Source: Planctomycetota bacterium (GTDB lineage: Bacteria; Planctomycetota; MHYJ01; JACQXL01; JACQZI01). From it: a DNA stretch of 64,000 bases. The DNA is taken from positions 1,122 through 65,121 of the forward strand of contig JACQZI010000005.1 in NCBI GenBank assembly GCA_016207825.1. Reading direction: 5' to 3'. A program made the translations under genes and the position numbers. This document shows, in pieces, positions 5,036 through 60,347 of this stretch (its first letter is position 1; every line of letters begins with the position of its first letter). The notes under the pieces are model-generated. The model did not search any database. It was not told the DNA's origin and was given only the letters and a program-made list of their open reading frames with translations.

Positions 5036-5042
5036 GGTTCCA

Positions 5043-15738: not shown

Positions 15739-15746
15739 CCAATATC

Positions 15747-18157: not shown

Positions 18158-20485
18158 ATGCGTAACACGAAAGTTTGCGAAGCGAAGTGCGAAACGACAG
18201 TGGAGTCCCGACCTAATCGGGGTAGTCCCGACGCACGTCGGGGGAATTTTGGATTTTGTGTATTATTAATTATTTGGAGCTTGGGTTTTGGTGCTTGGGA
18301 TTTGTGTGCGGACTCCTGGTCCCAGACCACCTTTACCGATGGGACATTTAATAGCACGATGAGCGCTACCAGTGGCAGCGATGTAAGTCTTTTTGTATCC
18401 ATTGATGCTGGTAATGGCACGGATGGTGCAATAACCGTTGCCGCGGCAAAAAATATTAATACGGATACCATTGCCGCCGGCAGGACTGTCGCCGATGGCT
18501 GGAACTCACGCGTTTCCGCCCTTACGGCAAATACAGCTACATTAGTAACCACACCTCCTGTTAATACTTTTGCAGTCGGTGACGAAGTTATTTTAATCAG
18601 TCTCAAAGGCATCTCTGCGGCTTATGGTAATGTTGGATTATATGAATTCCTTCGTGTCCAGTCAGTTGCTGGTAATATAATTACCTTTACCGCCAATAAA
18701 ATTAACTGGTACGGTGATGGCGCTAATGATACCAATGTCGGAACAAATCAAGTCGTGATGCTCCAGCGGGTGCCTAATTATACTGATGTAACGATTAATA
18801 TCGGCGGCTCACTTGCCTGTTCGGCTTTTGATGGGACAAAGGGAGGGATTCTTATCGTTAAAGCTACCGGAACAGTTACGGTAAATGCGCTGAATGGTAT
18901 AAATGCGAGTGACCGCGGATTTAGGGGCGGCGTTGGAGGCGGTTACTCCAGTCGTTCGGGTGGTGGTGAGTCATATAATGGCACGGGTGGTGCCGGTGGT
19001 GTAAATGGAGATGGATATAGTCCTCGTAGCGTTGGTTTAGCGGGTCAATCCGGCCAAGGTGGCGGTGGCGGCGCTGGTGCGTATGATAGTACTCTTGGTA
19101 CTGCAGCCGCTGGCGCGCTTGGTTCAGGTGGTGGTGCTGGCGGCGGCAGTGGTTACTACTCCAGTAACGATATTGGTGGTGGTGGCGGCGGCGGCGGTAA
19201 TGGAGGAACAGGCGGTGGCGGCGTGGGTGGCGGAGGTACGGCCGGGGCTGGTTCAGGAACTAACGGTGGTAATGGTAGTGCGGGGGTGGGTACCCGCTCT
19301 GCCGGTGGCGGCGGCGGCGGTGGGAACGATGGTCGGGCAGATTCTTCCGGGCTGGGTAATCGGGCATATATGGGTGGCGGTGGTGGTGCCGGTGGCGGCG
19401 GTTTTGAAGGTACGACATCTACCGCCGGACAACCCGGAGGCAATGGCGGAGGTATAATATTTATCTGTGCTAATAATATTAACGTTGCCTCAGGTGCATC
19501 TATTGCCGCAAATGGAGCAAACGGAGGAGCTGTCGGCACCTATGTAGGTGGTGGTGGCGGTGGGGCTGGTGGTTCTATAATTCTGAACTCAATCAGCGTG
19601 TCTAATTCAGGTTCCGTCACTGCTATTGGCGGTTCAGGAGGTTCCAATGCTCTTTCCGGCGGCGCGGGTGGTGGTGGTCGAACATATGCTCGGTATGTGG
19701 CTTTCAGCGGCACTGCACCAACCCCAAATTACTCAAGTGGAAATCCATCATCATATACTACTGCCGGCACCTATGTTTCATCGCTGATTAATTTGACTGG
19801 TCTTTCCTCTTGGGGTATTTTAACCTATACACGAACCGCTCCGGCAAATACCACCTTTACAGTTGACGTCTTAAAGGCCATAGATAATTCCATCCTGGTT
19901 TCTAACGTTGCTTCCGGCGTTAATCTTTCATCGGTTCTTCCATCGCCGTTATGCTATGCCATCAGGCTCCGGGCTAACTTTTCTACTTCAGATAATACCC
20001 AAACCCCGACCCTTTCTGACTGGGGAATAAACTACACAAGCGGCGGGACGACCATCACCACCACCAACTGGACGGATTTGGTTAACGGGCAATCCGTCCG
20101 GATGGGACAATCTATCGCCCACGTTAAATTTGAAATGAAAACATTTGATGGCACTGCCCGCTGGAGACGTTTCCGTATCGATAAAGGATTAAAAACATAC
20201 ACAAACCTTGCCTGCCCGGATTCTAAAATAGAAGTTCAGGTCTGGTGCGATACAAATGCCAATGGTTTCTGGGATACCGGCGATACGTTCATCGCTAAAG
20301 GCAATTTTACCAACGGCACGTGTTATCTCAATATGAAACAATGGCAGGTAACGACTACCACCAAGACTTATTATATCGTGTATAAATTAGCCAGTGATAT
20401 CAGCGGCGGCACCCGCGCCGGGGTGAAGATAGCGGATAGCAGCTATCTTGAATTTGAAAATGCCACTTGTATCGGAGTGCCATAA
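18158..20485 (+). CDS. Exported paralog 2: a leader identical to paralog 1 plus an 11-codon hairpin-element insertion, a Gly-rich central region (GGGxGG runs, probably beta-helix) and the conserved C-terminal module.
   Basis: The N-terminus MRNTKVCEAKC…RRGNFGFCVLLIIWSLGFGAWDL matches ORF 186..2522. The C-terminal 300 aa align with 48731, 50696 and 53061. Confidence 0.65.
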   Translation: MRNTKVCEAKCETTVESRPNRGSPDARRGNFGFCVLLIIWSLGFGAWDLCADSWSQTTFTDGTFNSTMSATSGSDVSLFVSIDAGNGTDGAITVAAAKNINTDTIAAGRTVADGWNSRVSALTANTATLVTTPPVNTFAVGDEVILISLKGISAAYGNVGLYEFLRVQSVAGNIITFTANKINWYGDGANDTNVGTNQVVMLQRVPNYTDVTINIGGSLACSAFDGTKGGILIVKATGTVTVNALNGINASDRGFRGGVGGGYSSRSGGGESYNGTGGAGGVNGDGYSPRSVGLAGQSGQGGGGGAGAYDSTLGTAAAGALGSGGGAGGGSGYYSSNDIGGGGGGGGNGGTGGGGVGGGGTAGAGSGTNGGNGSAGVGTRSAGGGGGGGNDGRADSSGLGNRAYMGGGGGAGGGGFEGTTSTAGQPGGNGGGIIFICANNINVASGASIAANGANGGAVGTYVGGGGGGAGGSIILNSISVSNSGSVTAIGGSGGSNALSGGAGGGGRTYARYVAFSGTAPTPNYSSGNPSSYTTAGTYVSSLINLTGLSSWGILTYTRTAPANTTFTVDVLKAIDNSILVSNVASGVNLSSVLPSPLCYAIRLRANFSTSDNTQTPTLSDWGINYTSGGTTITTTNWTDLVNGQSVRMGQSIAHVKFEMKTFDGTARWRRFRIDKGLKTYTNLACPDSKIEVQVWCDTNANGFWDTGDTFIAKGNFTNGTCYLNMKQWQVTTTTKTYYIVYKLASDISGGTRAGVKIADSSYLEFENATCIGVP

Positions 20486-20541: not shown

Positions 20542-23004
20542 ATGTTACCGAAAACATGTATCTCATTAAATCCCCTCTTGAGAGGGGTCAGGGGTGTGTT
20601 ATCTTCTGTCTTTCTTCTCTCATCTCTCATCTTTCCCCTCTCTGTTTCTGCCGGTTCTTTCCCTAACTTTGACAACTCCGGCGGCGGCTCCTGGACTACC
20701 GGCTACTACCGTCCCATCTCCATCACCAATACCGCCGGCGCCCAGACCGATTATCAAGTTGCGGTAACTCCATTTGGCCCGGAATATGAAGAAAACAATG
20801 GGAATGTCACGTATAATGGGACATGGAATGTTTACAATAATGTAAATTGCAGCCGCGGTTCCCAAAAATGGTCAACCACAACGAACAACACCGCAACTTT
20901 TTCCTTTAATGGCACCGGTGTTACATGGGTTTCAACAAAGAACGCAGATTATGGTATTGCTAAAGTCTACATCGACGATGTCTATCAGCAAAACGTAGAC
21001 CTTTATAATTCAACGAATATATTCCAGCAAGCTGTTTATACTAAAGATGGGCTGGCAAATGGGTTTCACACAATTAAAGTGGAAGTAACCGGCACAAAAA
21101 ACGCTTCGTCTACTAATTATTATGTTACCATAGACGCGTTTGATACCGGCAACTTTATCAATAACTCCGGACTGGTCGGCTCGTGGCACTTCTCCGAAAA
21201 CTCCGGCACCGCCGCCGCCGATATGTCAGGCAATGGCAATAACGGAACGTTAACTAACAGTCCAATATGGGTAGACGGCAAGTTCGGAAATGCATTATCC
21301 TTTGATGGAGCGAATGATTATGTAAGCGTGTCGGATAATAATGCGTTAACATTTGGCAACGGGACAACCGATTCGCCTTTTTCAATAGAATTATGGGTAT
21401 ACCCTAATTCTGCGAGTGGTGCTGTTATAGCAAAAGCAACTGCTTCTAATGCCGGTGAATATTATATCACAACTGCCGGAGGAAATTTATATTTCAGGCT
21501 GGTAGATAATAGCGCCAGTGGTTATATAGGAATATATGCCGTGATTTCCCAAAATCGATGGACTCATATCACAGCAGCTTATGATGGCAACGGTATTTCC
21601 GGAATGAGATTATATTTTAATGGCGTCTTGCAGGCAACAACTGCGTCAAGTTCAGGCAGTTATACCGCAATGGAAAATCTTGCTACCAATCTTAAAATAG
21701 GCGAAAGAGAGAGTGGCAGTAACTATTTTAACGGTCTCATTGACGAAGTCCGCATCTATAACCGGGCGCTCACCGCCGCCGAAATCACCACCCGCTATAA
21801 CTACTACACCAACAAACTCACAGGCGATTATTCTGATATCCGCTTCGCCCTTAGTCCTCCCCCAAATTCCGGCAATGAACTTTCTTACTGGCAGGAGACT
21901 GATAACAAGTTCTGGCTGAAGATTCCCAACCTGCCCGCTGGCGATTCTTATATCTATATGTATTACGGCAACCTAAGCGCGGAAAATTCAAGCGACGAAA
22001 ACAATGTCTTCGGGTCGGCAACTTCTAACCTCGCCCTGGGTAAAACATATACTAAATCAGAAGCCCCCTCCGGCTCTTATCCGGATACAGGCAATGCTGA
22101 ATTTACCGACGGCCAGCCTGATGAAACATGGGCGGATTCTTTTGGTTATGGTAAACCAAGCACCAATTATTGGCTGGAAATCACCGTTGATTTAACTTAT
22201 TCCAAGCTGATAAAGAATCCGATTTTGTATACCGGCGGCGGAACTGGATATCGGGCGCATTATGTGGAAATCTACGGCAGTCCTGATAACACCGCTTTTT
22301 ACCTGATTGGTTCCGCAGGAAATTTGAATTTAGGCACCGCGGATATAGGAATTTCCCCACTGGACATAACGACCACTCCCCGTGTTTTCAGGTATGTTAA
22401 ATTTAAAATTAATAAAGAGTGCGGGACTTCAGTGCAGGCAACCGATTGGCTTTTTGTCGGAGAGGGAATTGTTAACGGCAAAAGCCGCCAGTATGTTTCC
22501 CCAGAACCGACAGTTTCCGCACCGGGTGCGGAAAGTTTTGCACTCGACAAATACATCCAGACCGCCAACTGGCAAAGCCTTGTTTCATCCGGAAAAAGCA
22601 TCGTCATGGGGCAATCTATTGCCCAAGTTTCCTTTACCGCCGTCTTTACCGGCACTGACTCGGCAGGCAAAACAGCTAAATGGAAAAAGCTCCGCATTGA
22701 TAAAGGCGTCGGCGCCTATGCCGGTAGCGCCTGCCCTGATTCCAAAATAGAAGTCCAAATCTGGATGGAGAATAATGGCAACGGCTTCTGGGATACCGGC
22801 GATACCTTTATCGCTAAAGGCAACTTCACCAACGGCACGTGCTATTTGAATATGAACCGGTTTCAGATAACAACTACTCAGAGAACATTTTATATTGTAT
22901 ACAAATTAGCCAATGATATAGGAGGGGGGCAAAGAGCGGGCGTTAAGATAGTTGATAGCAGTTACCTTGAATTTGAAAACGCTACGGCAATTGGAGTCCC
23001 GTAA
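20542..23004 (+). CDS. Exported paralog 3: 'PLLRGVRGVL' leader, a DUF2341-like N-terminal domain, a LamG/concanavalin-like domain and the conserved C-terminal module.
   Basis: GGAGG-7-ATG at 20542. LamG signature …FGNALSFDGANDYVSV…LYFNG…. The C-terminal 170 aa belong to the family. Confidence 0.6.
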   Translation: MLPKTCISLNPLLRGVRGVLSSVFLLSSLIFPLSVSAGSFPNFDNSGGGSWTTGYYRPISITNTAGAQTDYQVAVTPFGPEYEENNGNVTYNGTWNVYNNVNCSRGSQKWSTTTNNTATFSFNGTGVTWVSTKNADYGIAKVYIDDVYQQNVDLYNSTNIFQQAVYTKDGLANGFHTIKVEVTGTKNASSTNYYVTIDAFDTGNFINNSGLVGSWHFSENSGTAAADMSGNGNNGTLTNSPIWVDGKFGNALSFDGANDYVSVSDNNALTFGNGTTDSPFSIELWVYPNSASGAVIAKATASNAGEYYITTAGGNLYFRLVDNSASGYIGIYAVISQNRWTHITAAYDGNGISGMRLYFNGVLQATTASSSGSYTAMENLATNLKIGERESGSNYFNGLIDEVRIYNRALTAAEITTRYNYYTNKLTGDYSDIRFALSPPPNSGNELSYWQETDNKFWLKIPNLPAGDSYIYMYYGNLSAENSSDENNVFGSATSNLALGKTYTKSEAPSGSYPDTGNAEFTDGQPDETWADSFGYGKPSTNYWLEITVDLTYSKLIKNPILYTGGGTGYRAHYVEIYGSPDNTAFYLIGSAGNLNLGTADIGISPLDITTTPRVFRYVKFKINKECGTSVQATDWLFVGEGIVNGKSRQYVSPEPTVSAPGAESFALDKYIQTANWQSLVSSGKSIVMGQSIAQVSFTAVFTGTDSAGKTAKWKKLRIDKGVGAYAGSACPDSKIEVQIWMENNGNGFWDTGDTFIAKGNFTNGTCYLNMNRFQITTTQRTFYIVYKLANDIGGGQRAGVKIVDSSYLEFENATAIGVP

Positions 23005-23104
23005 CACGAAATCAGTGCGAAGCCTCCCCGACAGGGGGCGAAACTGAAATGCGGAAACACGAAAGATTAATATTCCGTGTTTTCGTGTAACAGAAAGGAG
23101 GTGC
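23005..23104 (+). promoter_or_regulatory. Conserved 100-bp leader, identical at 45703..45834. It contains three CACGAAA / TTTTCGTG complementary segments and the CCCCGACAGGGGG hairpin, and ends in AAAGGAGGTGCGTG.
   Basis: Identical copy after paralog 5. Alternative pairings suggest an attenuator- or riboswitch-like leader. Confidence 0.4.
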
Positions 23105-23421
23105 GTGTTCCCGCAAGGGTATAACCTGTGCCCTCAAGGGCAAAACTTGTGCTCTCAAGAGCAGAACTCGTACCCTCAAGAGCAGGACTTGTGCCCACAA
23201 GGGCAGAACCTGTGCCCGCAAGGGCAAAACCTGTGCTCTCAAGGGCAGAACTTGTGCCCGCAAAGGCAAAACCTGTGCCCGCAAGGGCAAAACCTGTGCT
23301 CTCAAGGGCAGAACTTGTGCCCGCAAAGGCAAAACCTGTGCCCGCAATGGCAAAACCTGTGCTCTCAAGGGCAGAACTTGTGCCCGCAAAGGCAAAACCT
23401 GTGCCCGCAAGGGCAGAACTC
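23105..23421 (+). repeat. Tandem array of about 15 copies of a 21-bp unit with 63-bp super-period: gtgcccgcaagggcaaaacct, gtgctctcaagggcagaactt and gtgcccgcaaaggcaaaacct. It contains the palindrome TGCCCGCAAGGGCA and is followed by the hairpin ccccgaaattcttcgggg.
   Basis: Direct reading. All three frames are open. Frame 1 would encode a Cys-containing heptad (NLCPQGQ)n from a GTG that follows the SD. Confidence 0.85.
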
Positions 23422-23480
23422 GTGCCCCGAAATTCTTCGGGGTACCCCCGATTATATCGGGGAGAAAAGGAGAATTGTTT

Positions 23481-24173
23481 ATGGCAATAATAAAAGGGAC
23501 TAACTATCTCCCGCAAAAGGACGATGATTTCTTCAATTTCCAGGGCAATTTGGTCAACGAGGTCGTAACCAACACGGCTTGGGGCATTATGCCTGCGGCG
23601 GTAACGGCGCTGGTCGCCCGCCGGGCTTCGTATGAGCCGCTCTATACCAAAAGCCAGAATAAAGGCAACCGGACTCAGGCAGACGTCTTAGCCCATCGCC
23701 AGATGCGCGAACTCTATGAAAAGGAAATCAGGGCATTCGTCAAGACCTGGTTGATGTTTAATCCAATGGTTATGGACCAGGACCGCCGCCGGATGCGACT
23801 GACCGTGCGCGATGTTGAACCGACCCCCAGGGGAAAAATCACTTCCTTCCCGATTATCGGGTTAATCGCCGTGGGCGGCGGTTCTATTGAAGTCCGTGCC
23901 CGCGTCACGACCGACCAGACCAGATCCAGTATGCATTCTTTAGCCGATGCCGTGGAAGTGAGATATACCCTTGTGCCAAAAGGCGAGATGCCGCCGGACG
24001 ACCCGGAATCCTGCCCTAAAAATCAGGTATCAAAAAAGGCGCGGTTTTCCATTGCTTGCGGGGTGAAAAATGCCGGAGACACTTTTTACGGGTTTTTCCG
24101 CTGGGTGAACCTGACCAACCCGCAAAACAACAGCGACTGGACGACCAAACCCGAAGGCGTGGTCATTGCGTAG
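23481..24173 (+). CDS. Hypothetical protein
   Basis: AAAGGAG-8-ATG. Preceded by a CCCGATTATATCGGGG hairpin. Confidence 0.5.
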   Translation: MAIIKGTNYLPQKDDDFFNFQGNLVNEVVTNTAWGIMPAAVTALVARRASYEPLYTKSQNKGNRTQADVLAHRQMRELYEKEIRAFVKTWLMFNPMVMDQDRRRMRLTVRDVEPTPRGKITSFPIIGLIAVGGGSIEVRARVTTDQTRSSMHSLADAVEVRYTLVPKGEMPPDDPESCPKNQVSKKARFSIACGVKNAGDTFYGFFRWVNLTNPQNNSDWTTKPEGVVIA

Positions 24174-27158: not shown

Positions 27159-28427
27159 ATGAGAAAACTGATAATGGCTTGTTTAATGATTGGAATAATA
27201 GCGATTCCGTATTGGATTGCGGGAGAAGAAGAAAAAGAATCGCTGTTTGACGAACAGGCTGAACGGTTTAACGGATTGATTAGCCAGCTCGGCTCGGATG
27301 ACTTCGATACACGCCAAAAGGCGCAAGATGAATTAATCCAAATCGGCGAAAAGTTGATTGAAGAATATAAAAAAGTTAAGACTAAGAATGATAATGAAAA
27401 ACTAAAAGCTGAAAAATCTAAAATAAATGATTTTGCTGTCAGCATAAAAAAAACCTGCCAGAATAACGATCCGGAGATAAAAACCAGGGCGAATCAAATC
27501 AGGCGTCATTTTTATTATCAAAATATGCCGGAAATCGCTTTCATTTCCAATGAATCACGTAATTGTGTGATTAATTTGATAAAAATTGATGGGACGAACT
27601 GCCGGCAATTAAAAACAGAATACGGCAATAGCTATTGGCCGGACTGGAGCCCGGACGGCAAGAAGATTGTTTTTACCGCAGAGGTGCAGGGAAACTTTGA
27701 AATCAGGGTGATGGATGCTGACGGGAGAAACGAACGCAGATTAACACGTGATGAAAACAATTCATTATATCCTGTATGGAGCCCTGATGGGAAAAAGATT
27801 GCTTTCCGCAAGGATTCCAAGCAGGGCCGTATAATTTATATCATGGATGCCGACGGTAAAAGCCAGAAGCCTTTGACAGACGATGAAGATATTTTAAAAA
27901 CAATAAAACATATCGCAATAAACAGTGAAGAGATTAGCTGGTCTCCTGACGGCAAAAAAATCGCCTTTGTTTCGGGAATTGATGGTAATCCTGAAATTTA
28001 CACAATAACCACTGATGGAAAAACCCTACAGCGCCTGACTGAAAACCCGGCAGAGGATGTTAGTCCGGCCTGGAGTGCCGACGGCAAAAAGATAGTTTTT
28101 ACATCTAATCGGGATGGTGAAAATAAGATTTGTGTAATGCCTGCCTCGCCGCCCGCCTCGCCGAGCGAGAGCGAGGTTGGGGTAGGCGGGGATGTTAACG
28201 GTAAAGACCAAAGAATATTAACCCAAGGCTGTTCACCTGCTTGTTCTCCGGATGGCAAAAAAATAGCTTTTGTCCGCTCCCATACGATAGACTGTTCTGA
28301 TATCTATATAATGGATCTTGATGGTTCTAATGAGCATAGATTAACCAGCGGGCATGGGGGGCGAGGTTCGCCCTCTTGGAAACCGGGAGGGGTTTATGAA
28401 ATTTCTGAGCTGTTTAAAGAAAGGTAA
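27159..28427 (+). CDS. TolB-like PD40 beta-propeller protein with an N-terminal helical domain
   Basis: Repeated motif WSPDGKKI(A/V)F…DG…EIY(V/I)MDADG. SD aaaggaaag followed by ATG. Confidence 0.7.
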   Translation: MRKLIMACLMIGIIAIPYWIAGEEEKESLFDEQAERFNGLISQLGSDDFDTRQKAQDELIQIGEKLIEEYKKVKTKNDNEKLKAEKSKINDFAVSIKKTCQNNDPEIKTRANQIRRHFYYQNMPEIAFISNESRNCVINLIKIDGTNCRQLKTEYGNSYWPDWSPDGKKIVFTAEVQGNFEIRVMDADGRNERRLTRDENNSLYPVWSPDGKKIAFRKDSKQGRIIYIMDADGKSQKPLTDDEDILKTIKHIAINSEEISWSPDGKKIAFVSGIDGNPEIYTITTDGKTLQRLTENPAEDVSPAWSADGKKIVFTSNRDGENKICVMPASPPASPSESEVGVGGDVNGKDQRILTQGCSPACSPDGKKIAFVRSHTIDCSDIYIMDLDGSNEHRLTSGHGGRGSPSWKPGGVYEISELFKER

Positions 28428-39640: not shown

Positions 39641-39946
39641 CTTATTCTCCTTATTTTCTACGGTGGCACAAACCTTTATTCCCACAGTAGAATATCAGAA
39701 TTATCAGGAATGTCAATCTATTTATTCTGCCTCGTTTTTTTTTGTTATCCAGTTTGACTTTAGCCGTGTTTTATGATATAAATAATATTTTGTAAGCTGA
39801 TTAAGCGGATTGAACCGGTTTGGTTTGTGTATCAGAAAAATCAGATAAATTGGCTTAATCTGCCTCTACCTATTTATTAAATCAGGCGTCCCCGAATCAC
39901 GCAAAGCGGGATGAAAGGGACTTACTTTATTAATCTCTTATGGAAA

Positions 39947-40111
39947 ACGAGAACTGTTTCGCCATTCCAAAGTTAAGTATTAAATCAAAGGCGAACGTGC
40001 TCATTATACCATTGATAGCAGTATGTTAAACGAGCGCTGCTTCGCCATTCCAAAGTTAAGTATTAAATCAAAGGCGAACGTGCTCGTTATACCAATTATA
40101 GCAGTATGTTA
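39947..40111 (+). repeat. Tandem duplication, 2 copies and the start of a third, of an 82-83-bp unit that includes the dinB start codon. It creates two 28-29-codon upstream ORFs whose TAA stop overlaps the next ATG (ATGTTAA).
   Basis: aacgag…ttcgccattccaaagttaagtattaaatcaaaggcgaacgtgctc…agcagtatgtta repeated. Confidence 0.8.
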
Positions 40112-41299
40112 AACGAGCGCTATATCGTCCACGTTGATATGGATGCGTTTTTCGCCGCTATCGAACAGCGGGATAATCCGTCCTTGCGCGGGAAACCGGT
40201 TATTGTAGGTTCCGATCCTAAAGGGGGCAAAGGCCGTGGCGTAGTCTCCACATGCTCATACGAGGCGCGCAAGTTCGGAATCCATTCCGCCATGCCTATC
40301 TCGGAAGCCTATCGCAGGTGCCCCACCGCCATCTTTCTCCCCGTTGATATGGAAAAATACTCGCGCGTCTCAGGCGAGATATTCAAACTGCTCTATGAAT
40401 TCACTCCGGTCATCGAACCCGTCAGCATTGACGAGGCGTTTCTGGATATCACGGAAAGCTATAAAATCTTTGGAACGCCGCTCAAGACCTGTGCATTAAT
40501 CAAGGAACGCATCAAAAAGGAAACGGGATTGACTGCATCGCTCGGGATGGCGCCGGTCAAGATGGTTGCCAAGATTGCCTCCGACCTAAAAAAGCCCGAT
40601 GGCTTTGTCGAAGTGAAAGCGGGCAAGGTGCGCGAGTTCCTGAACCCACTGCCTATCAGAAAACTCTGGGGATTGGGGGAAAAGAGTGAAATCATTTTTA
40701 ACCGAATGGGGATTAAAACCATCGGCCAACTCGCCCGGATGGATGAAGAGAAATTAGTTGAGATACTCGGAGAAAACGGGCGGCATCTGCTCTCCCTCTC
40801 TAAAGGAATCGACCCGCGGGAAGTCGTGACCGAATATGAAACCAAATCCGTCAGCAAGGAATTCACCTTTGATGTTGATACGCTGGATAAGAAAAAGATA
40901 GAAGCGACCCTGATGCTCTTGTGCGAGGGGGTCTCGGCTAATCTGCGCGCGGAGGGATTAAAAGGCCGGACCATCACCCTGAAAATCCGGCTGGAAGGCT
41001 TTGAAACTTACACGCGGGCGGCAACTATAACTGAGCCGACGAACTTCGAGGACGTGATTTACCAGGAAATAAAAACGCTCTATAATAAGTTTGAGACACG
41101 AGGGAAAAGGATTCGGCTTTTGGGGGTGAAGGTTTCGCACTTCGGCGAGGTGGGAATACAAACGAACCTCTTCGAAAAGCCCGACCGGAAAAAGGAAGAA
41201 CTCCACAAGGCGCTTGACGCCATCAAGAAGAAGTTCGGCGATGACGCCATCCACCGCGCCACGGTAATAAAAAATAAAGACGAGTCACAAACCAGTTGA
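40106..41299 (+). CDS. dinB: DNA polymerase IV
   Basis: MLNERYIVHVDMDAFFAAIEQRDNPSLRGKPVIVG and later Y-family motifs. Confidence 0.9.
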   Translation: MLNERYIVHVDMDAFFAAIEQRDNPSLRGKPVIVGSDPKGGKGRGVVSTCSYEARKFGIHSAMPISEAYRRCPTAIFLPVDMEKYSRVSGEIFKLLYEFTPVIEPVSIDEAFLDITESYKIFGTPLKTCALIKERIKKETGLTASLGMAPVKMVAKIASDLKKPDGFVEVKAGKVREFLNPLPIRKLWGLGEKSEIIFNRMGIKTIGQLARMDEEKLVEILGENGRHLLSLSKGIDPREVVTEYETKSVSKEFTFDVDTLDKKKIEATLMLLCEGVSANLRAEGLKGRTITLKIRLEGFETYTRAATITEPTNFEDVIYQEIKTLYNKFETRGKRIRLLGVKVSHFGEVGIQTNLFEKPDRKKEELHKALDAIKKKFGDDAIHRATVIKNKDESQTS

Positions 41300-41332: not shown

Positions 41333-43360
41333 ATGAAAGATAAGCAATTATCAGAATACCTCGAAAAGATTAGTTCATTCGGGGGAAAAAGCAACTGGCA
41401 AAAAGTAAGGCATCTCGGGGAGACGGCCGTAAAAAAGCTGGCGACACTCCATTACACACCCCAAGAAGAATTTACGCTCTACCGCCAGATGGGACTGGCT
41501 TATTATAATCTGGTGGAATATCCCCGTTCGGTTGATATTTTCTACAAGGCCTATCTGGTAGCCTCGCGCAATTCATTCCCGCCAATACAAGTAGCTTATG
41601 CCCATTACAGCTTAGGGCTTGGTTTTCTTGTAATGCACCACATCAAGCAATCTTTAGCGCAATTACTGAAGGTGGAACAATATTACCAAAAATATGGCGA
41701 TGCGACCCCGCCGATGAACCGGAATAAGTATTATTTCTCACTTATCTATATCGCTCTTTGCCATCTCTATAATAATGAAATAGACAAAGCACGGGAGGTA
41801 ATCGAACAGAAACTTGCCGGCCCGATGGAAACAGAATCGAACGGCATTATTTTAAATAGTTATCATCACCTGAAAGGCGAATATGCCTACGCCATAAAAG
41901 ATTATGTCGCATCCCGCAAGGCTTTCAACGAATGCGTTAAAATCAGCGAGGAGTTCAAATTCCCGCGCGGCATCCTGGAAGCAAAGGTGCATATAGTCAC
42001 CCTTGATATCCTGGAAGGACATTTGGATTCTGCCGTCCGGCTGGCAACCAGTATCTTTCAAGACGCCCGCCGGATAAAATATAACGAACTCGTTTGCGAA
42101 GCCGGATTGCTTTTAAGTAAATGTTATTCCCTCTTCCGCCAGCCGAACAAGGCGCAGGCAATCGAAAAACGTATCAAACCGCTTTTACGGAAACTGGACA
42201 TCATCTGGTTTTATGAAAAAACCCGGGAGTTTGAACTGCTCTATCAACAAATGGAAACAAGCGTCAATTTACCGCAGGCAATGCATCCCGATACTGCGAG
42301 CCGGGAGACGTGGCTGACCCGGACAAAACCACTGCCGGAAGTGCTTGCCCAGGCGATTAACCACTGTTCCGCGCAAATGCCTTATAAAAGTGTGATTATC
42401 GGTAATGCACCGCCGATGCGGGAGGTTTGCCAGTTGATTAATCGGATTGGCCCGACCGACCTGCCCGTTTTAATCCAGGGGGAAACCGGGACGGGCAAGG
42501 AACTTGTGGCCCACGCGGTTCACCACCTCCATAATCTGCGTTCATCCAAACCGTTATTAGCTTTTAATTGCGGGGCTTTCCCGGAGACCCTGATTGAAAG
42601 CGAACTCTTCGGGCATACCAAAGGCGCCTTTACGGGGGCAAGCGAGAAAAAGAAAGGCTATATTGAACTGGCGTCCGGGGGATCGCTTTTTATGGATGAG
42701 GTCGCCAATATGTCTTCATCAATGCAACAGAAACTATTGCGGGTCCTGGAAGAAAAACAAGTTTGGCCGCTGGGGGCGGAAAAAGCGATTCCTATCAATA
42801 CCCGCTTTATTTTTGCTTCCAACCGAAACCTTGACAACTTAGTCCGCCAGAAACTTTTCCGGGAAGACTTGTTCTACCGGATTAATACAATTGTCATTAC
42901 TCTTCCATCCCTGCGTGACCGCAAGGACGATATCCCTTTGCTAATCCAGCACTTCCTTGCTAAATATTCTCCTAAAGACGCACGACACAGTGCGCAGCCT
43001 CCCGTAGGGATAACGCAGGACGCACAACGCCTCCTCACCACCTATTCCTGGCCAGGAAATGTAAGAGAACTGGAAAATGAGGCCAAAAAGATTTGCGTGC
43101 TGTATCCTGATGCCAAATTAATCAAAGACGATATGCTTTCCGATGCTATCCGGGCTTGCAAACCAACCAGTGAATATTTATCAAACAACAGATTAACCTT
43201 AAAAGAACAGAGGGCAGACTGGGAACGGAATACCATCAAAGAAACCATAAAAAAATGCTCCGGCAATATCACCAAAACCGCCTCCCGGTTAGGATTAGAC
43301 CGTTCCGGCTTATACAAAAAAATGCGGGAATTAAACATCCCGTTCAAAGATGTAGACTAA
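41333..43360 (+). CDS. Sigma-54-dependent activator (TPR-AAA+-HTH), paralog 3
   Basis: GETGTGKELVAHAVH, GAFTGA, HTH. A TTGACA promoter lies about 35 bp upstream. Confidence 0.85.
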   Translation: MKDKQLSEYLEKISSFGGKSNWQKVRHLGETAVKKLATLHYTPQEEFTLYRQMGLAYYNLVEYPRSVDIFYKAYLVASRNSFPPIQVAYAHYSLGLGFLVMHHIKQSLAQLLKVEQYYQKYGDATPPMNRNKYYFSLIYIALCHLYNNEIDKAREVIEQKLAGPMETESNGIILNSYHHLKGEYAYAIKDYVASRKAFNECVKISEEFKFPRGILEAKVHIVTLDILEGHLDSAVRLATSIFQDARRIKYNELVCEAGLLLSKCYSLFRQPNKAQAIEKRIKPLLRKLDIIWFYEKTREFELLYQQMETSVNLPQAMHPDTASRETWLTRTKPLPEVLAQAINHCSAQMPYKSVIIGNAPPMREVCQLINRIGPTDLPVLIQGETGTGKELVAHAVHHLHNLRSSKPLLAFNCGAFPETLIESELFGHTKGAFTGASEKKKGYIELASGGSLFMDEVANMSSSMQQKLLRVLEEKQVWPLGAEKAIPINTRFIFASNRNLDNLVRQKLFREDLFYRINTIVITLPSLRDRKDDIPLLIQHFLAKYSPKDARHSAQPPVGITQDAQRLLTTYSWPGNVRELENEAKKICVLYPDAKLIKDDMLSDAIRACKPTSEYLSNNRLTLKEQRADWERNTIKETIKKCSGNITKTASRLGLDRSGLYKKMRELNIPFKDVD

Positions 43361-43487: not shown

Positions 43488-43503
43488 TGGCACGTTATTT
43501 GCT
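43488..43503 (+). promoter_or_regulatory. Sigma-54 promoter TGGCACGTTATTTGCTATA
   Basis: Same core as the other three. Confidence 0.65.
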
Positions 43504-44352: not shown

Positions 44353-45702
44353 ATGGGTAAATTAACCATTGGTGTTCTTGTCATCGTCTTTATCATCTCT
44401 GGCTCTCTCCACGCCGAAACGTTTATTGAAAACTTTTCGACCACCACCAACAAAGACGCCGGCAACACTACGGCTAACTGGGATACCGCAACCGGTCTTT
44501 TAAAACTTCCGGGAAGCGGTGCGACATCCGAAAAACCTTTAAGCACGAATACATTCCCTACTTCATCCCTTGCCGCTGTTTATGAAATAGGTTGGCGATT
44601 TATCCCTCAAGTCAATGGTCAAATCACCGCCTTAGGCAGATATGATGATGCGTCTCATAATAATACTATTATTACGTTGTGGAACGATTCGGGCGGACAA
44701 CTGGCCCAGGTAACGGTGGTAAACAGCGCCGGATGGTCATGGGCGGCCTTAGGTACACCGGTCAATGTAACGGCCGGCACTGCTTACCGGGTAAGCCTTT
44801 GGTGTTCGACTGGCTATAAATACGGCGCATGGGCTCAACCACAAATCAGAGGAAATATCCAAATAACCTCATATTGTTATCTTGTGAATACCCATGCGTA
44901 TCCTAACCTTACGGGGACAGGCTATATGTACGGAGTCCCTGATATAGAATTCACTGTTGGTGGCGGTTACCAAACACCTAAAACCGGACAATCTACAAAA
45001 ATCAATACAACCTTCGATACCATTCAGGCGGTTAACCTGTCCGTTTCAGGTACTCTGCCGGCGAATACCGCCATTACTTATGAAATCACCGCCAACGCCG
45101 GGACAAACTGGTATCAAATCACGCCGACCGCGCAAGGGAATGAATTTATTATTCCTCAAGTCGGCAGGGGAAACGACCTTAGGTGGCGCGCGAATTTATC
45201 TACTGCTAATACCAACGTTACGCCGTCCTTGGACCAATTAATAATCACTTATTATACAGGCAGCGCTTTAGTCACCACCACCAACTGGACGGGTTTGGTT
45301 AATACGAATCCGATTAAAATGGGTCAATCAATTGCTTATATCAAGTTTGATGCCAAAACCGATTCAGGAACCGCATGTTGGAAGCGTTTTCGTGTTGATA
45401 AAGGGCTGAAAACATACACAAACTCTGCCTGCCCGGATAATAAGATTGAAGTCCAGGTTTGGTGTGATACAAATACCAACGGCTTCTGGGATACCGGCGA
45501 TACGTTTATCGCCAAAGGTAATTTTACTAACGGCACTTGTTACCTCAATATGAACCGCTGGCAGGTAACGACCACCTCTAAAACATATTACATCGTGTAT
45601 AAGCTTGCTAATGATATTGGAGGTGGTCAACGTGCCGGGGTAAGCGTGAAAGATAGTAGTTATCTTGAGTTCGAGAATGCTACATGTGTAGGTGTTCCGT
45701 AA
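44353..45702 (+). CDS. Exported paralog 4: signal peptide, a DUF4082-like domain (GWRFIPQVNGQITALGRYDD…) and the conserved C-terminal module
   Basis: The C-terminal 190 aa belong to the family (…YLEFENATCVGVP*). Confidence 0.6.
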   Translation: MGKLTIGVLVIVFIISGSLHAETFIENFSTTTNKDAGNTTANWDTATGLLKLPGSGATSEKPLSTNTFPTSSLAAVYEIGWRFIPQVNGQITALGRYDDASHNNTIITLWNDSGGQLAQVTVVNSAGWSWAALGTPVNVTAGTAYRVSLWCSTGYKYGAWAQPQIRGNIQITSYCYLVNTHAYPNLTGTGYMYGVPDIEFTVGGGYQTPKTGQSTKINTTFDTIQAVNLSVSGTLPANTAITYEITANAGTNWYQITPTAQGNEFIIPQVGRGNDLRWRANLSTANTNVTPSLDQLIITYYTGSALVTTTNWTGLVNTNPIKMGQSIAYIKFDAKTDSGTACWKRFRVDKGLKTYTNSACPDNKIEVQVWCDTNTNGFWDTGDTFIAKGNFTNGTCYLNMNRWQVTTTSKTYYIVYKLANDIGGGQRAGVSVKDSSYLEFENATCVGVP

Positions 45703-45823
45703 CACGAAATCAGTGCGAAGCCTCCCCGACAGGGGGCGAAACTGAAATGCGGAAACACGAAAGATTAATATTCCGTGTTTTCGTGAATTCTTTTCGTGTT
45801 TTCGTGTAACAGAAAGGAGGTGC

Positions 45824-47086
45824 GTGTTCTCGCAAGGGTATAACCTGTGCCCTCAAGGGCAAAACTTGTGCTCTCAAGAGCAGAACTCGTACCCTCAAGA
45901 GCAGGACTTGTGCCCACAAGGGCAGAACCTGTGCCCGCAATGGCAAAACCTGTGCTCTCAAGGGCAGAACTTGTGCCCGCAAAGGCAAAACCTGTGCCCG
46001 CAAGGGCAGAACTCGTGCCCCGAAATTCTTCGGGGTACCCCCGACCGTAAAAAACTGCTGGAAAACAAAGATTCTAACCAACCCGCATGCTGTCTCTTGG
46101 CTCCGATAATCAAGCCGTTTAGCGATACTTTGAAGGAAGCGTGCAAAAATAAAAACCAGGTGATTAAAGACCGGGCCAATCAAGTTCGCTTGAGCCTTTT
46201 GGCTTCGGTTAAATCAAAAATCATTTACATTTCCGGCAGTGCCTTACATATAAAGGATATAATAGGCAACGATTCCCCGATAATCAATTTTAACGATATA
46301 ACAGATTTGCCATCTATCTGTTCGAAATGCAATATCGCGGTCAATCAGGCTGGAGATAAAATCCTGTTTGTCGGCTATGACCGGGAAAAGAACAGGGATA
46401 TTTATAAGCTGGATATAACAGAGAAAAAATGTTATCGGCTTACAGAAGATACGGCAGATGATTTTGCCCCTTCTTGGAGTCCGGACGGAACTAAAATCAC
46501 ATTTACTTCAACTCGGGATGGCAATGATGAAATATATGTAATGGATGCGGACGGAAAAAATCAAAAGCGTCTTACGGAAAATAAAACTAATGATAGCATG
46601 CCTGTCTGGAGGCCGGATGGCACATTCATTGCTTTTATTTCCGACCGTGATGGAACAAACACCATTTACACGATGAATCCTGACGGGACAAACCAGCAGA
46701 AAGTTCTTAGCCTTAAAGCGGATAATATTTCCGCTCTCGGAATGCATCCGGATGGGACTAAAATCGCATTTGCCTCCAACCGGAGCGGAAAATATGAAAT
46801 ATACACAGCCGGAGGAATGGGCGATGAAATAACACAGATAACCAAATGTCCGGAAGAGTTTGAATTCGTCGGCAGTCCAATCTGGAGTCCGGACGTCACG
46901 CAAATCGCGTTTGCCGCAAAGGTAAAAGGGCAACATGAGATTTATATAATGCCTGCCCGTCCGTCAGGCGGGAATGTGGACGGCTCAAATATGCGCAATA
47001 TAAGCAATAATCCAGAAGCTGACGATCTTTCGCCCGCTTGGATTCCATCCGATTTAAAAAAGCTTTCTATCTTATTTTCAGAATGA
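45824..47086 (+). CDS. TolB-like PD40 beta-propeller protein whose only available N-terminus is the in-frame translation of the 21-bp array, a Cys heptad (NLCPQGQ)n.
   Basis: No ATG, GTG or TTG with an RBS lies between the array and the first PD40 blade. The paralog 27159 has a normal signal peptide instead. Confidence 0.45.
   Translation: MFSQGYNLCPQGQNLCSQEQNSYPQEQDLCPQGQNLCPQWQNLCSQGQNLCPQRQNLCPQGQNSCPEILRGTPDRKKLLENKDSNQPACCLLAPIIKPFSDTLKEACKNKNQVIKDRANQVRLSLLASVKSKIIYISGSALHIKDIIGNDSPIINFNDITDLPSICSKCNIAVNQAGDKILFVGYDREKNRDIYKLDITEKKCYRLTEDTADDFAPSWSPDGTKITFTSTRDGNDEIYVMDADGKNQKRLTENKTNDSMPVWRPDGTFIAFISDRDGTNTIYTMNPDGTNQQKVLSLKADNISALGMHPDGTKIAFASNRSGKYEIYTAGGMGDEITQITKCPEEFEFVGSPIWSPDVTQIAFAAKVKGQHEIYIMPARPSGGNVDGSNMRNISNNPEADDLSPAWIPSDLKKLSILFSE
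45835..46014 (+). repeat. Second copy of the 21-bp tandem array, about 8.5 units, preceded by the same 100-bp leader (45703..45834, with an extra 21-bp duplication) and followed by the same ccccgaaattcttcgggg hairpin.
   Basis: Identical to units of the 23105..23421 array. The copy number differs between the two arrays (15 versus 8.5). Confidence 0.85.
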
Positions 47087-48714: not shown

Positions 48715-48730
48715 GTAAAAGGAGGAAATT

Positions 48731-55630: not shown

Positions 55631-57811
55631 CTACCTGCGCCTATCGCCACTAAACCGATTATTTTGCCTGGGAGGACGGGGCCTTTCCTGCTGCATCCCT
55701 TCCGGAACCGGTGGCTCGCTCGCCGGGTCAACAGCTTGCTTGCGGCTGAGCTTAATCTTGCCCTGGTCGTCTATACCGATGCACTTGACCGGGATAATAT
55801 CGCCCATCTTGACGACATCGGTGACGCTCCCGACATAGCGGTTGGAAAGCTCGGAGATATGGACCAACCCTTCCTGGCCGACCAGTATCTCGACAAACGC
55901 ACCGAAGTCCTTGATGGAAACGACTTTGCCCTGGTAGATTTTGCCGATTTCGGCTTCTTCCACGATACCTTCCACCTGTTTCTTGGCGGCATCAAGAGAG
56001 GCGGCGTCCTTACCGTAAATGATAACCTCTCCGGTATCTTCTATTTCAATCTTGACGCCTGTTTCTTCCTGGATTCTGCGGATGGTCTTGCCGCCGCCGC
56101 CGATAACCGCGCCGATTTTATCCGGCTTAATCATCAAGCGGACAACGCGCGGTGCATAAGCAGAAATATCCGTCCTGGGCGCGGCAAGCGCCTGCGCCAT
56201 CTTTCCCAAAATATGGAGACGGCCTTCTTTTGCCTGCGCCAGTGCTTTCTTCATGATGTCCATAGAAAGGCCGCCCACCTTTATATCCATCTGGAAACCG
56301 GTAATCCCGTTGGCGGTGCCGGCGACTTTGAAATCCATATCGCCGTATTTATCTTCGCTTCCGAGAATATCGGAAAGTATGCTGATATCGTTCCCTTCCT
56401 TAACGAGTCCCATGGCGATTCCGGCAACCGGGGACTTAATCGGCACACCCGCGTCCATCAGGGAAAGCGTCGCGCCGCAAACCGTTGCCATGGATGAGGA
56501 GCCGTTTGATTCCAGGATATCGGAAACCACCCGGATGGTATACGGGAATTTCTCAAAGTCCGGCAGCATCGGTTCCACCGCCCTTTCGGCTAAGTGGCCG
56601 TGCCCTATTTCACGCCTGCCGGGCCCGCGCAGAGGTTTCACCTCTCCCACCGAAAACGGCGGGAAATTATAGTGGAGCATAAAACGCTTGACGTATTCAT
56701 CGGCCAGCCCGTCTATAATCTGCTCGTCATCGGCTGTACCGAGCGTTGCCACGACCAATGCCTGCGTCTCGCCGCGGGTAAAGAGCGCCGAGCCGTGCGT
56801 CCGGGGCAGTATCCCCAAATCGCAGGTAATCGGGCGTATTTCCGTCAGGCTTCTGCCGTCCATCCGTTTGCCGCTGGTAATCAGCTCGCGGACTATTTCC
56901 TCTTCAATCTTGGTGAATGCCGCCTTGATGAGCTTGGTCTGCTTTTGGGCATCGGCTTCGGGAAGACTCGCGCAATAAGTTTCAATCTGCTTCTTTTTTA
57001 TCTCGGAAACGGCGTCATGCCGCTCGTGCTTGCCTTTTATCTGGATTTTGGTTTTTAATTCGTCATGGATTTCCTTCTTCATCTTTTCATAAAGCGCCTT
57101 ATCGAATTCCGGCGGAGTCACTTCCATCTTCTTCTTATCGGTCTTCAACTGTTTCTGGAGAGCGACCAGTTCCTTAACGGCTTTATGGCCGAACTCGATT
57201 GCTTCCAGCAAGGCTTCCTCGGATTCCTCCTTGGCGCCGCCTTCGACCATGAGGACCGCGTCCGCCGTGCCGGCGATGACGATATCCATCGTGCTTTCTT
57301 TCATTTCCGATATTTCCGGGTTGAGGGTGAGCGTCCCGTTGAGCTTGCCGACTTTTACCGCGCCGATAGGCCCGTTAAAAGGAATGCCGGAAAGCACCAG
57401 ACACGCCGAGGCGCCGTTGATTGCCAGGATATCCGGGTCGAAATTGCCTTCTGCGGAAAGAACCATGGACATCAGCTGTATTTCGTTCTGGAATCCTTCC
57501 GGGAAAAGCGGCCTTAAGGGGCGGTCAATCAACCGCATGGTTAAGATTTCCTCCGTGGTCGGCCTGCCTTCGCGCTTAAAGAAGCCGCCCGGAATCTTTC
57601 CGGCGGCGGAGGTCTTTTCGCGGTAGTCCACGGTCAAGGGGACCATAGCATCGTCCCACTGGGATTCTCTGGCTTCACCGGCAACCACGGTCGTTAAGAC
57701 GACCGAATCGCCGTAGGAGACGAGAGCCGCTCCGTCTGCCTGTTTTGCCATCACACCTGTCTGGATGGTGAACTGGCGCCTGCCTAATTGCAGTGTCACT
57801 TCCTGTTTCAT
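55631..57811 (-). CDS. pnp: Polynucleotide phosphorylase
   Basis: Two RNase PH domains, KH and S1 domains, 726 aa. Confidence 0.95.
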   Translation of the reverse strand: MKQEVTLQLGRRQFTIQTGVMAKQADGAALVSYGDSVVLTTVVAGEARESQWDDAMVPLTVDYREKTSAAGKIPGGFFKREGRPTTEEILTMRLIDRPLRPLFPEGFQNEIQLMSMVLSAEGNFDPDILAINGASACLVLSGIPFNGPIGAVKVGKLNGTLTLNPEISEMKESTMDIVIAGTADAVLMVEGGAKEESEEALLEAIEFGHKAVKELVALQKQLKTDKKKMEVTPPEFDKALYEKMKKEIHDELKTKIQIKGKHERHDAVSEIKKKQIETYCASLPEADAQKQTKLIKAAFTKIEEEIVRELITSGKRMDGRSLTEIRPITCDLGILPRTHGSALFTRGETQALVVATLGTADDEQIIDGLADEYVKRFMLHYNFPPFSVGEVKPLRGPGRREIGHGHLAERAVEPMLPDFEKFPYTIRVVSDILESNGSSSMATVCGATLSLMDAGVPIKSPVAGIAMGLVKEGNDISILSDILGSEDKYGDMDFKVAGTANGITGFQMDIKVGGLSMDIMKKALAQAKEGRLHILGKMAQALAAPRTDISAYAPRVVRLMIKPDKIGAVIGGGGKTIRRIQEETGVKIEIEDTGEVIIYGKDAASLDAAKKQVEGIVEEAEIGKIYQGKVVSIKDFGAFVEILVGQEGLVHISELSNRYVGSVTDVVKMGDIIPVKCIGIDDQGKIKLSRKQAVDPASEPPVPEGMQQERPRPPRQNNRFSGDRRR

Positions 57812-58744: not shown

Positions 58745-59036
58745 AAGAGCCTACTATCTTTATAATGGAGGGGTACCTTACTATGATGCCATATTTAGCT
58801 TAATTATAATAGATAGCTACCTTACTATGTTGCCATACTTAGCTCTATTATAATGGATAGACACCTTACTATGATACCACGCCTATTTTAATTATAGTGG
58901 AATGGGGCCTTACTTTGATGCCATACTTATTTTAATTATAATGGATGGCTACCTTACTATATTGCCACACTTAGCTTAATTATAATGGATAGGTACCTTA
59001 CTGTGATGCCATACTTGCAATATTTATAATGAAGGG
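58745..59036. repeat. Tandem repeat of about 6.5 units with a period of about 44 bp (taccttactatgatgccatacttagcttaattataatggatagc). Each unit carries a TATAAT-like box.
   Basis: CCTTACT recurs at 58777, 58821, 58864, 58910, 58953 and 58996. The units are contiguous and degenerate with no spacers, so this is not a CRISPR array. Confidence 0.8.
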
Positions 59037-59507: not shown

Positions 59508-60347
59508 TTACAGACCCAGTTCCATCCCCTCAGCCGTGGCGAAGCAGTCCAATGATGATTTCTTGTTTTTGATGATACGACGGCAATCCGAGACAAAGCC
59601 GTCAATCGCTTCGTCTTCCCTTTCCTGGTTATGGTGGAATAAGCCGAACTTTTTCACCTTAGCTTCCAACGCCAGCCGTAAAGCGTCCGTATAAACGCTA
59701 TGCCCCCAGGTCTTGGTCCGGGCGTATTCCTCTGCCGTGAATTCGGCATCGTGGATAAGCAAATCCACACCCGCACACGCCTTGACGTAATCCGCGTATT
59801 CTAATCCCCCCGGATGCTTATATGTAAGCTCGTTATCCGTTATGAAGATAAAGCTTTTCCCATCTTCGGTAAACTTATAACCCATGCCCTGGTCAGGATG
59901 GCTCAATAAAATCGGTGAAACAGAGATAGAATCAATCTTAAATGTTTCAGTACAAATGCCGTGATAGGTAATATCCGCCTTGACTTCGCTGTAATTCACC
60001 GGGAAGTTCGGATGCACCATGGTGCCGGAAATTATATTCTTGACGGAATCCTGGGCAAATGGGCAGCCGAACATATCTATTTTAGTCTGCTTCATGTGAA
60101 TGGGCTTAAAGAAAGGGAATCCGAGGATATGGTCCCAGTGCGCGTGGGTGAAGACCAGCGAATATTCAAACCGCTTTTCGCTAATAAGTTTGTTGCCGAG
60201 CTTCCGGATGCCCGAACCGGCGTCAACAATGATTATGTAATCGTTTTTCGTCCGTATTTCCAGGCAGGTGGTGCTCCCGCCGTATTTCAGGTATTCTTTG
60301 CCCGAAACCGGAATCGAGCCGCGGCTTCCCCAACAGCGAATTAACAT
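59508..60347 (-). CDS. MBL-fold metallo-hydrolase
   Basis: THAHWDHILGFP motif. Confidence 0.7.
   Translation of the reverse strand: MLIRCWGSRGSIPVSGKEYLKYGGSTTCLEIRTKNDYIIIVDAGSGIRKLGNKLISEKRFEYSLVFTHAHWDHILGFPFFKPIHMKQTKIDMFGCPFAQDSVKNIISGTMVHPNFPVNYSEVKADITYHGICTETFKIDSISVSPILLSHPDQGMGYKFTEDGKSFIFITDNELTYKHPGGLEYADYVKACAGVDLLIHDAEFTAEEYARTKTWGHSVYTDALRLALEAKVKKFGLFHHNQEREDEAIDGFVSDCRRIIKNKKSSLDCFATAEGMELGL

Follow-up and report, generated by a model that had tools for sequence, protein, structure and literature searches.

Among described repeat systems, the element analysed here stands closest to the pneumococcal BOX elements, which have the structure boxA-boxB(n)-boxC with a boxB of about 45 bp, and to the arrays of repetitive extragenic palindromic (REP) sequences of about 35 bp and of bacterial interspersed mosaic elements (BIMEs) found in enterobacteria. 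It occurs in a 64,000-nt stretch of a metagenome-assembled genome (MAG) of a Planctomycetota bacterium (contig JACQZI010000005.1, positions 1,122 to 65,121), hereafter called the window, where two copies are present. The second copy reads without interruption into a PD40 beta-propeller gene, together forming the open reading frame (ORF) 45824..47086. Like BOX and REP/BIME arrays, the element starts with a 5' module that is unique, followed by short tandem dyad units in varying number (15 and 9 in the two copies) and a hairpin-bearing 3' module. It lies between genes at the 3' ends of operons, its copies are near-identical amid diverged surroundings, and it is associated with a local rearrangement. 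It differs from these systems in its 21-bp unit with a 5-bp stem, in the absence of terminal inverted repeats and, in the window, of a REP-associated tyrosine transposase (RAYT) or any other transposase, in being seen only twice in 64 kb, and in having no sequence similarity to Rfam or to the DNA collections searched.

The gene fused to the second copy invites comparison with an ordinary 5'-truncated pseudogene. As in such pseudogenes, a breakpoint lies beside a tandem array in the arm of a hairpin, both the signal peptide and the start codon appear to have been lost, and the ORF is apparently rescued by open sequence upstream. In contrast to the ordinary case, the upstream open sequence carries a perfect Shine-Dalgarno (SD) sequence and an in-frame GTG, and truncated and intact alleles coexist with 100% identity in their flank. 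We read ORF 45824..47086 as a 5'-truncated allele of a PD40 beta-propeller gene and not as an evolved repeat-propeller protein, with a probability of roughly 0.6. The features on which this reading depends are the following.

22999..23462, + strand: element copy 1, with a leader, a 15-unit array (23105..23419), hairpin 1 (23422..23445) and hairpin 2 (23446..23462)
27159..28427, + strand: intact propeller paralog of 422 aa (MBI4833337), with an N-terminal signal anchor and a helical region
44353..45702, + strand: upstream DUF4082 gene of 449 aa (MBI4833350), the last gene of a sigma-54 operon
45697..46044, + strand: copy 2 of the intergenic repeat element (348 bp), with 326/327 aligned bases shared with copy 1
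45703..45823, + strand: structured leader of copy 2, with direct and inverted ACACGAAA/TTTCGTGT motifs and the hairpin CCUCCCCGACAGGGGG, ending in AAAGGAGGTG
45824..46012, + strand: 21-bp array of 9 units, consensus CTGTGCCCGCAAGGGCARAAC, with the dyad TGCCC-N4-GGGCA; the GTG frame reads (L)CPQGQN
46015..46038, + strand: terminal hairpin 1, GTGCCCCGAA-ATTC-TTCGGGGTAC, with a 10-bp stem and no U-tract
46039..46044, + strand: hairpin 2 remnant CCCCGA, the first 6 bases of the 5' arm
46045..47086, + strand: apparent 5'-truncated PD40 beta-propeller gene, beginning at about codon 71 of the ancestral gene and 100% identical to the same-strain contigs L001 and L002
47083..48714, + strand: UbiA-family prenyltransferase gene, whose ATG overlaps the propeller TGA (ATGA)

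The evidence for a truncation comes from Logan contigs of the same strain. Exact-protein look-ups yielded contigs only for the UbiA protein and for proteins of 281 and 189 aa; none was returned for the 420-aa ORF, the copy 1 ORF, P0001, P0125, or the 449-aa and 230-aa proteins. With the UbiA protein we retrieved contigs from two independent runs, L001 (SRR12113406) and L002 (SRR12113402). Both are 100.000% identical to the window from 46045 to 48785 (over 2741 and 2739 nt, respectively); left of 46045 they diverge completely from it and contain no array. They carry there 115 and 85 nt of extra in-frame coding sequence, which reads across the junction (marked by a slash) as …LISQLGDDDIQVQETAQKELVKYGKALLETC/RKK…, or in its longer form QNDKIQSLISQLGDDDIQVQETAQKELVKYGKALLETC/RKKLLENK…, and aligns to residues 33-70 of the paralog 27159..28427 as QAERFNGLISQLGSDDFDTRQKAQDELIQIGEKLIEEYKK (LISQLGDDD… versus LISQLGSDD…). 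The 115 extra nucleotides of L001 occur nowhere in the 64-kb window. Elsewhere in the window, three further contigs (L004, L005 and L006) are 99.9-100% identical to it, and therefore all contigs derive from one strain. Over more than 10 kb, a 3-nt gap is the sole difference between the MAG and the Logan contigs.

Because the same-strain contigs continue as intact coding sequence left of 46045, the position 46044/46045 is a breakpoint (window 46030..46060, …GGGGTACCCCCGA/CCGTAAAAAACTG…; L001 100..130, …CTTCTTGAAACCTG/CCGTAAAAAACTG…). It falls in the 5' arm of the second terminal hairpin of the element, and the window allele has lost about 70 codons, the start codon and the ribosome-binding site (RBS). 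By analogy with the paralog 27159..28427, a signal anchor was presumably also lost from the window allele. As these contigs show, an intact allele of the propeller gene is present in the same population. Since the two alleles coexist at 100% flank identity, the event must be either very recent or artefactual.

None of the same-strain contigs reaches the element; on every side they end 85-135 nt away from it. L005 ends at window position 45567 and L001 starts 115 nt left of the junction, with no join between the two in SRR12113406, and at locus 1 L004 starts (window 23543) 92 nt past the end of the shared element. We found no repeated 31-mer in the window that would explain these breaks; the contig ends suggest poor short-read coverage beside the hairpin array. 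A CCGTAA hexamer is present both at the left edge of copy 2 (45697..45702) and immediately after the breakpoint (46045..46050); to the right of copy 1 the hexamer is missing. This pair may be due to chance, or it may be a recombination signature or a target duplication.

The initial annotation had described a TolB-like gene whose only N-terminus is the translated array, and this observation is confirmed. The repeat frame does continue stop-free from the array of copy 2 into the propeller, as a plus-strand ORF of 420 aa with a GTG start. The nine 21-bp units make up its first 63 codons (45824..46012; Tandem Repeats Finder reports 45833..46020, period 21, 9.0 copies), the PD40 coding sequence runs from 46045 on, and three stretches match PD40 repeats (PF07676, E = 3.5e-33). 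No in-frame ATG follows the array, and none of the six in-frame TTG or GTG codons before the first blade (46097, 46130, 46160, 46190, 46199 and 46307) has a Shine-Dalgarno match of at least 4 nt within 20 nt upstream. Signal anchors were judged by Kyte-Doolittle hydropathy over a 15-residue window. The first 110 residues of the fusion ORF contain no hydrophobic N-terminal segment (maximum 1.19), whereas the N-terminus of the paralog 27159..28427, MRKLIMACLMIGIIAIPYWIA, reaches 2.45 at residues 4-18, in agreement with the signal peptide that had been assigned to it. An overlooked downstream start with an intact signal peptide was thus looked for and not found, as this region offers neither an SD sequence nor a hydrophobic segment.

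The unbroken frame from the array into the propeller carries no information, because the three forward frames are all stop-free through the array and tail in both copies; any ORF joined downstream will therefore read back through the array. The sole coincidence is that the propeller frame is the one with the SD sequence and the GTG, a 1-in-3 chance. GTG 45824 is preceded by AAAGGAGGTG (45813-45822), a full complement of the anti-SD sequence with a 9-nt match, which ends 1 nt before the GTG and places the AGGAGG core 3 nt from it. The 1-nt spacing is unfavourable. In the NCBI annotation, the Prokaryotic Genome Annotation Pipeline (PGAP) starts the gene of copy 2 at an arbitrary TTG within the array, giving a protein of 392 aa (MBI4833351). 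If the fusion were translated, predicted candidate peptides would include LCPQGQNLCSQEQNSYPQEQDLCPQGQN from the array and GTPDRKKLLENK across the junction. The propeller remnant 46045..47086 has normal codon usage (score 0.27, compared to 0.19-0.32 in 17 real genes of the window), and the UbiA gene is its operon partner, since the UbiA ATG overlaps the propeller TGA.

The paralogy proposed between the two propeller genes of the window was likewise borne out: ORF 45824..47086 and the gene at 27159..28427 share 32% identity (E = 5e-43). Homology within the window begins only at residue 96 of the ORF, which corresponds to residue 89 of the paralog. The paralog has a stronger PF07676 match (E = 6.8e-47), and its N-terminal region consists of the signal anchor and a helical HEAT-like segment. 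The nearest database relatives of the propeller ORF are annotated as PD40, DUF5050 or 'Tol biopolymer transport system component', and the best non-self match shows 43-46% identity over about 68% of the query. Like TolB, ORF 45824..47086 contains several PD40 blades (PF07676). Unlike TolB, neither it nor the paralog contains the N-terminal alpha/beta domain (TolB_N) at E <= 0.01, and no tol-pal neighbourhood (tolQRA-tolB-pal) surrounds it; its neighbours encode a DUF4082 surface protein, the UbiA prenyltransferase and further paralogous surface proteins. Furthermore, the window allele is devoid of the N-terminal signal anchor and helical region that the paralog and the L001 allele have. The ORF therefore encodes a PD40 propeller and not TolB proper. 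A UbiA-based search for the orthologous locus gave a best match of 39% identity in a Cloacimonadota MAG, which is not syntenic, and the collections searched contain no close orthologue of the propeller-UbiA locus that would reveal a displaced N-terminus.

Comparison of the two copies defines the element and the point at which copy 2 is cut. The counterpart of copy 2 in copy 1 is 22999..23451, the last common base being A23451/A46044. The copies differ by two indels, one of 21 bp in the leader and one of 126 bp (6 units) in the array, and by one single-nucleotide polymorphism (SNP). They are 99.7% identical, compared to approximately 69-74% for the adjoining coding DNA, and downstream of the element the two loci, at 27% identity, are unrelated. 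The near-identity starts at each locus with CCG-TAA, at the stop codon of the upstream gene (22999/45697), so that the TAA of the DUF4082 gene (45700-45702) forms the first part of the near-identical element. In copy 1, hairpin 2 is complete (CCCCGATTATATCGGGG, 23446..23462) and directly follows hairpin 1. The array frame of copy 1 (23105..23503) terminates at 23503, 23 nt into the next gene (23481..24173), which has its own AAAGGAGAA-N7-ATG at 23481; this had been reported correctly.

Several further observations concern the leader, whose fold has a minimum free energy z-score of -3.2. The leader of copy 2 has an extra 21 nt at 45777..45797 (…TTTTCGTGAATTCTTTTCGTG…), which lengthens the leader hairpin, and every length difference between the copies, also outside the array, is a multiple of 21 bp. 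The leader segment TGCGGAAACACG (23050..23061) can pair with an inverted copy at 23069..23085 or, alternatively, with CGTGTTCCCGCA (23104..23115), which contains the GTG start and the first unit. Alternative structures around the SD sequence and the start codon are thus possible. The first 24 or so nucleotides of the element (CGTAACACGAAA…TGCGAAG; 22999..23026 / 45697..45724) resemble codons 2-9 of two paralog genes, at 18160..18186 and 2520..2494 (-), which start with ATG CGT AAC ACG AAA GTT TGC GAA G; the 5' regions of these two paralogs also hold CCCGA…TCGGG hairpins. Judging from a 12-nt plus 8-nt match to these genes (starting at 18158 and 2522 (-)), with a BLAST E-value of only 0.33, the leader may be a relic of a paralog 5' end.

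The array is most likely non-coding. A search of 5.8 billion proteins with the 132-aa peptide of the copy 1 ORF returned no homologue at E <= 0.01. The codon log-likelihood of the array in its three forward frames is -0.05, -0.01 and -0.08, compared to 0.19-0.32 in the 17 real genes, and the variable sites of the units show, by inspection, no excess of synonymous changes. Judging from the protein numbering, PGAP calls no gene on the array of copy 1. With no homologues, no coding-like codon usage, all frames open and the copy 1 array uncalled, the notion of a real Cys-heptad protein finds no support.

A function as an RNA hairpin is possible on the basis of predicted folding. In the TGCCC/GGGCA stem, 89% of cells pair across units, and the fold of the whole element is more stable than expected on both strands (z-scores of -6.3 for the + and -4.3 for the - strand). 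Covariation adds nothing to this: only one pair of the stem changed on both sides, 286/500 shuffles gave an equal result, and the score lay below the shuffled mean. At gathering thresholds, the only Rfam match in the window is a tRNA at 61357, and an E-value search of the element returned chance-level matches to miRNA and engA families, far below their gathering scores. We also considered the array as tandem sigma-54 promoters or activator sites and found no support for this, as the real promoters (TGGCACGATATTTGCT) lie upstream of operons and the TGCCC-N4-GGGCA dyad is absent outside the arrays, including from promoter-upstream regions. Likewise, no intrinsic terminator was detected in 45500..46500, where the hairpins have no U-tracts.

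The initial annotation had offered two options, a mobile 5' module that captured and replaced the 5' end of a gene, or a pseudogene. The replacement survives in part: the comparison with L001 and L002 indicates that the native 5' end is missing and that the element stands in its place. The mobile, gene-capturing module is not supported. We found no inverted repeat linking the termini of the element, no transposase or recombinase gene in the window, no target-site duplication at copy 1 and no consistent one across the two copies, and no further copy in the collections searched. In detail, the array pattern had no match in GTDB genome contigs and a single match in JGI metagenomes, a chance one within an ilvC gene; the array and leader patterns had none in IMG/VR, and BLAST against plasmids and phages gave no element match. 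Nor does the element behave as a 5' cassette, since in both loci it starts at the stop of the upstream gene of a sigma-54 operon, which marks it as a 3'-end or intergenic element. Copy 2 is cut inside a hairpin that is whole in copy 1, which speaks for a deletion or a join rather than for the arrival of an entire unit. A pseudogene or truncated allele is the better fit of the two options.

We take the element to be non-coding, specific to this lineage and situated between genes or at the 3' ends of sigma-54 operons, and by sequence it appears unlike anything in the collections searched. Another metagenome contains relatives of the C-terminal domain conserved in the upstream gene; there the domain leads straight into the next gene, with no array. 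The 21-bp array was accordingly rejected as a general feature after the C-terminal domain of this family, two relatives (L063 and L064) and four in-window paralogs having only the next gene or simple hairpins at that position. A relation of the two C-terminal coding copies like that in diversity-generating retroelements (DGRs) was also dismissed: by inspection, their differences are ordinary paralog divergence and not adenine-specific.

How the truncated allele could have arisen can be proposed as follows. The intact allele would likewise have the element immediately ahead of its start codon, in the arrangement seen at locus 1; this is suggested because the contigs stop 85-135 nt short of it with no repeated 31-mer as a reason, which points to hard-to-assemble DNA between L005 and L001. 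Given the length of the paralog, the start codon would lie about 100-130 nt beyond the end of L001. The hairpins and repeats of the element would make it prone to slippage and deletion, and a hairpin-associated deletion of about 0.2-0.25 kb, from hairpin 2 to about codon 70, would have eliminated what follows of hairpin 2 along with the RBS and the 5' end of the gene, namely its start codon, signal anchor and some 70 codons. The remnant would then read back through the stop-free array to the GTG that lies 1 nt after AAAGGAGGTG. As its product would have no export signal, the most likely status of the locus is that of a pseudogene or of a structural variant present at low frequency. The near-identity of the two element copies may be owed to recent copying or to gene conversion.

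Several points weigh against this account. The 5' end of the intact allele was not recovered, and we infer both how large the deletion was and that the element is present there. Microhomology, a frequent mark of slippage deletions, is absent from the junction. The perfect SD sequence and GTG in the propeller frame could drive translation of the fusion. In addition, the remnant ORF is unbroken, its codon usage is normal and it still shares ATGA with UbiA, and for it we only infer a loss of function. Finally, the sequences at hand do not separate an assembly artefact from a real variant. We prefer a deletion in vivo to a zero-gap join or a polymerase-jump artefact, although it is not separable from these.

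An error of assembly or scaffolding, by which contigs were joined without a gap near the hairpin array, or a chimeric or polymerase-jump read, would leave the real genome intact and no fusion in cells. We consider this the most serious competitor, yet well short of an even chance. Independent assemblies of two same-strain runs give the intact junction and not the fused one, all same-strain contigs break 85-135 nt from the element, evidently for poor coverage, and a junction with no microhomology inside a hairpin is where polymerase jumping happens in vitro. The MAG may derive from BioProject PRJNA640378, a guess from accession and run numbers that a look for the run and locus-tag identifiers in the associated publication did not bear out; should it be right, the assembly combined MEGAHIT with IDBA-UD scaffolding. 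However, the window contains no N, which scaffolders normally insert, and de Bruijn assemblers need real k-mers across a junction whose two sides have no k-mer in common; a genuine variant in the MAG's own sample would be equally possible. A second explanation, close to the module replacing a 5' end that was first put forward, is that locus 2 originally had no element and that leader, array and hairpin were copied from locus 1 and joined to the interior of the propeller gene by an illegitimate event. The recombination would have been anchored in the part of the upstream paralogs that encodes their conserved C-terminus; high identity sets in sharply at CCGTAA (22999/45697) and ceases at the breakpoint. 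The contrast between elements at 99.7% identity and flanks at approximately 70%, as well as the upstream-family relatives in another metagenome with no array after the gene, would fit such a history. We nevertheless find it improbable, because so recent a copying should have left the copies identical, whereas copy 2 departs from copy 1 in a SNP, in 21 bp duplicated in its leader and in an array shorter by 126 bp, against one 3-nt gap between MAG and Logan over more than 10 kb. Moreover, L005 and L001 (SRR12113406) fail to join across the only ~350 nt of unique DNA expected if the element were absent, and an anchor of 70% identity is a poor one for homologous recombination.

Two readings in which the fusion matters as a protein seem very unlikely to us. 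In the first, the SD sequence and GTG of the element would start translation of a cytoplasmic Cys/Gln/Asn-rich heptad domain on the propeller, or would keep translational coupling to UbiA. Its appeal lies in the perfect anti-SD complement AAAGGAGGTG before a GTG in the propeller frame, in the intact ORF with its UbiA ATGA overlap kept, and in inverted repeat I6, by which the leader can base-pair with the start region, so that initiation could be regulated. It has to contend with an SD-to-start spacing of only 1-3 nt, a repeat peptide with no homologues, coding signature or synonymous excess, the lack of a signal peptide on a normally exported fold, and the dominance of the intact allele in two samples. 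The second, to which we likewise attach very little weight, would make the element an active recombinogenic cassette that, with its own RBS, GTG and stop-free heptad array, yields translatable N-terminal fusions whenever it is copied or deleted beside a gene. If this were true, it would represent a bacterial route to new repeat-domain chimeras, and the polymorphism would be such an event caught in the act.

The truncated allele that we favour stands downstream of one of several related sigma-54 operons in the window. The features that define this context, and one further array, are these.

2867..2882 (- strand), 11793..11808, 17897..17912 and 43488..43503: four near-identical sigma-54 promoters, TGGCACGATATTTGCT or TGGCACGTTATTTGCT
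3008..5071 (- strand), 15711..17771 and 41333..43360: three paralogous sigma-54 activator genes, near the promoters
1..172, - strand: third array of 21/42-bp period and different sequence, CCGGARGGCGGGRAAWGTTYC, with dyads such as TTTCCCG-N5-CGGGAAA

The two element-bearing operons are preceded by TGGCACGATATTTGCT at 17897 and TGGCACGTTATTTGCT at 43488, and each has its own enhancer-binding-protein gene. A module is repeated in this region, consisting of an activator, a promoter, a secreted LamG/DUF4082/RCC1 protein and then an array. The module proteins have a common C-terminal domain of about 150 aa, which is 70-77% identical among seven paralogs. The third array starts about 30 nt after the TAA of gene 186..2522 (-), an RCC1-repeat/He_PIG gene with the C-terminal domain of the family; it is in frame with this gene behind a single stop and runs off the window, and its fold has a z-score of only -1.7. 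A weak 21-bp periodicity at 17378..17438 in an activator gene (THDAQRM TQDSQRI TPDAQRL) was examined as a possible insertion and set aside, as two paralogs have a linker of the same length. Tandem repeats of 14 bp (ATTTGGTGCTTGGG, about 2.5 copies) are present at 18272..18309 and 2408..2441, in the predicted signal-peptide region of two paralogous surface-protein genes. Elsewhere in the window, an AT-rich unit of 44 bp (TTATAATGGATAGGTACCTTACTATGATGCCATACTTAGCTTAA) is repeated in tandem at 58760..59031, in 6.2 copies and with a higher-order period of 132 bp, between the PNPase gene 55631..57811 (-) and the metallo-beta-lactamase-fold gene 59508..60347 (-). An 83-bp unit is found twice (93% identical) at 39945..40121, upstream of and overlapping the start of the DinB/Pol IV-family gene 40106..41299.

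The phenomenon observed here is ordinary: a truncated gene, an ORF extended by stop-free repeats and possibly an assembly artefact. Its clearest lesson is for annotation, as stop-free tandem repeats let gene callers stretch truncated genes into a plausible "fusion protein", as in MBI4833351; treating ORF 45824..47086 as a new domain architecture would be a mistake. The leads that it provides on repeat elements reshaping neighbouring genes are modest and, as they stand, answer no standing question. For the organism, the locus points to a structural polymorphism at a hairpin-array element within one groundwater-type Planctomycetota population.

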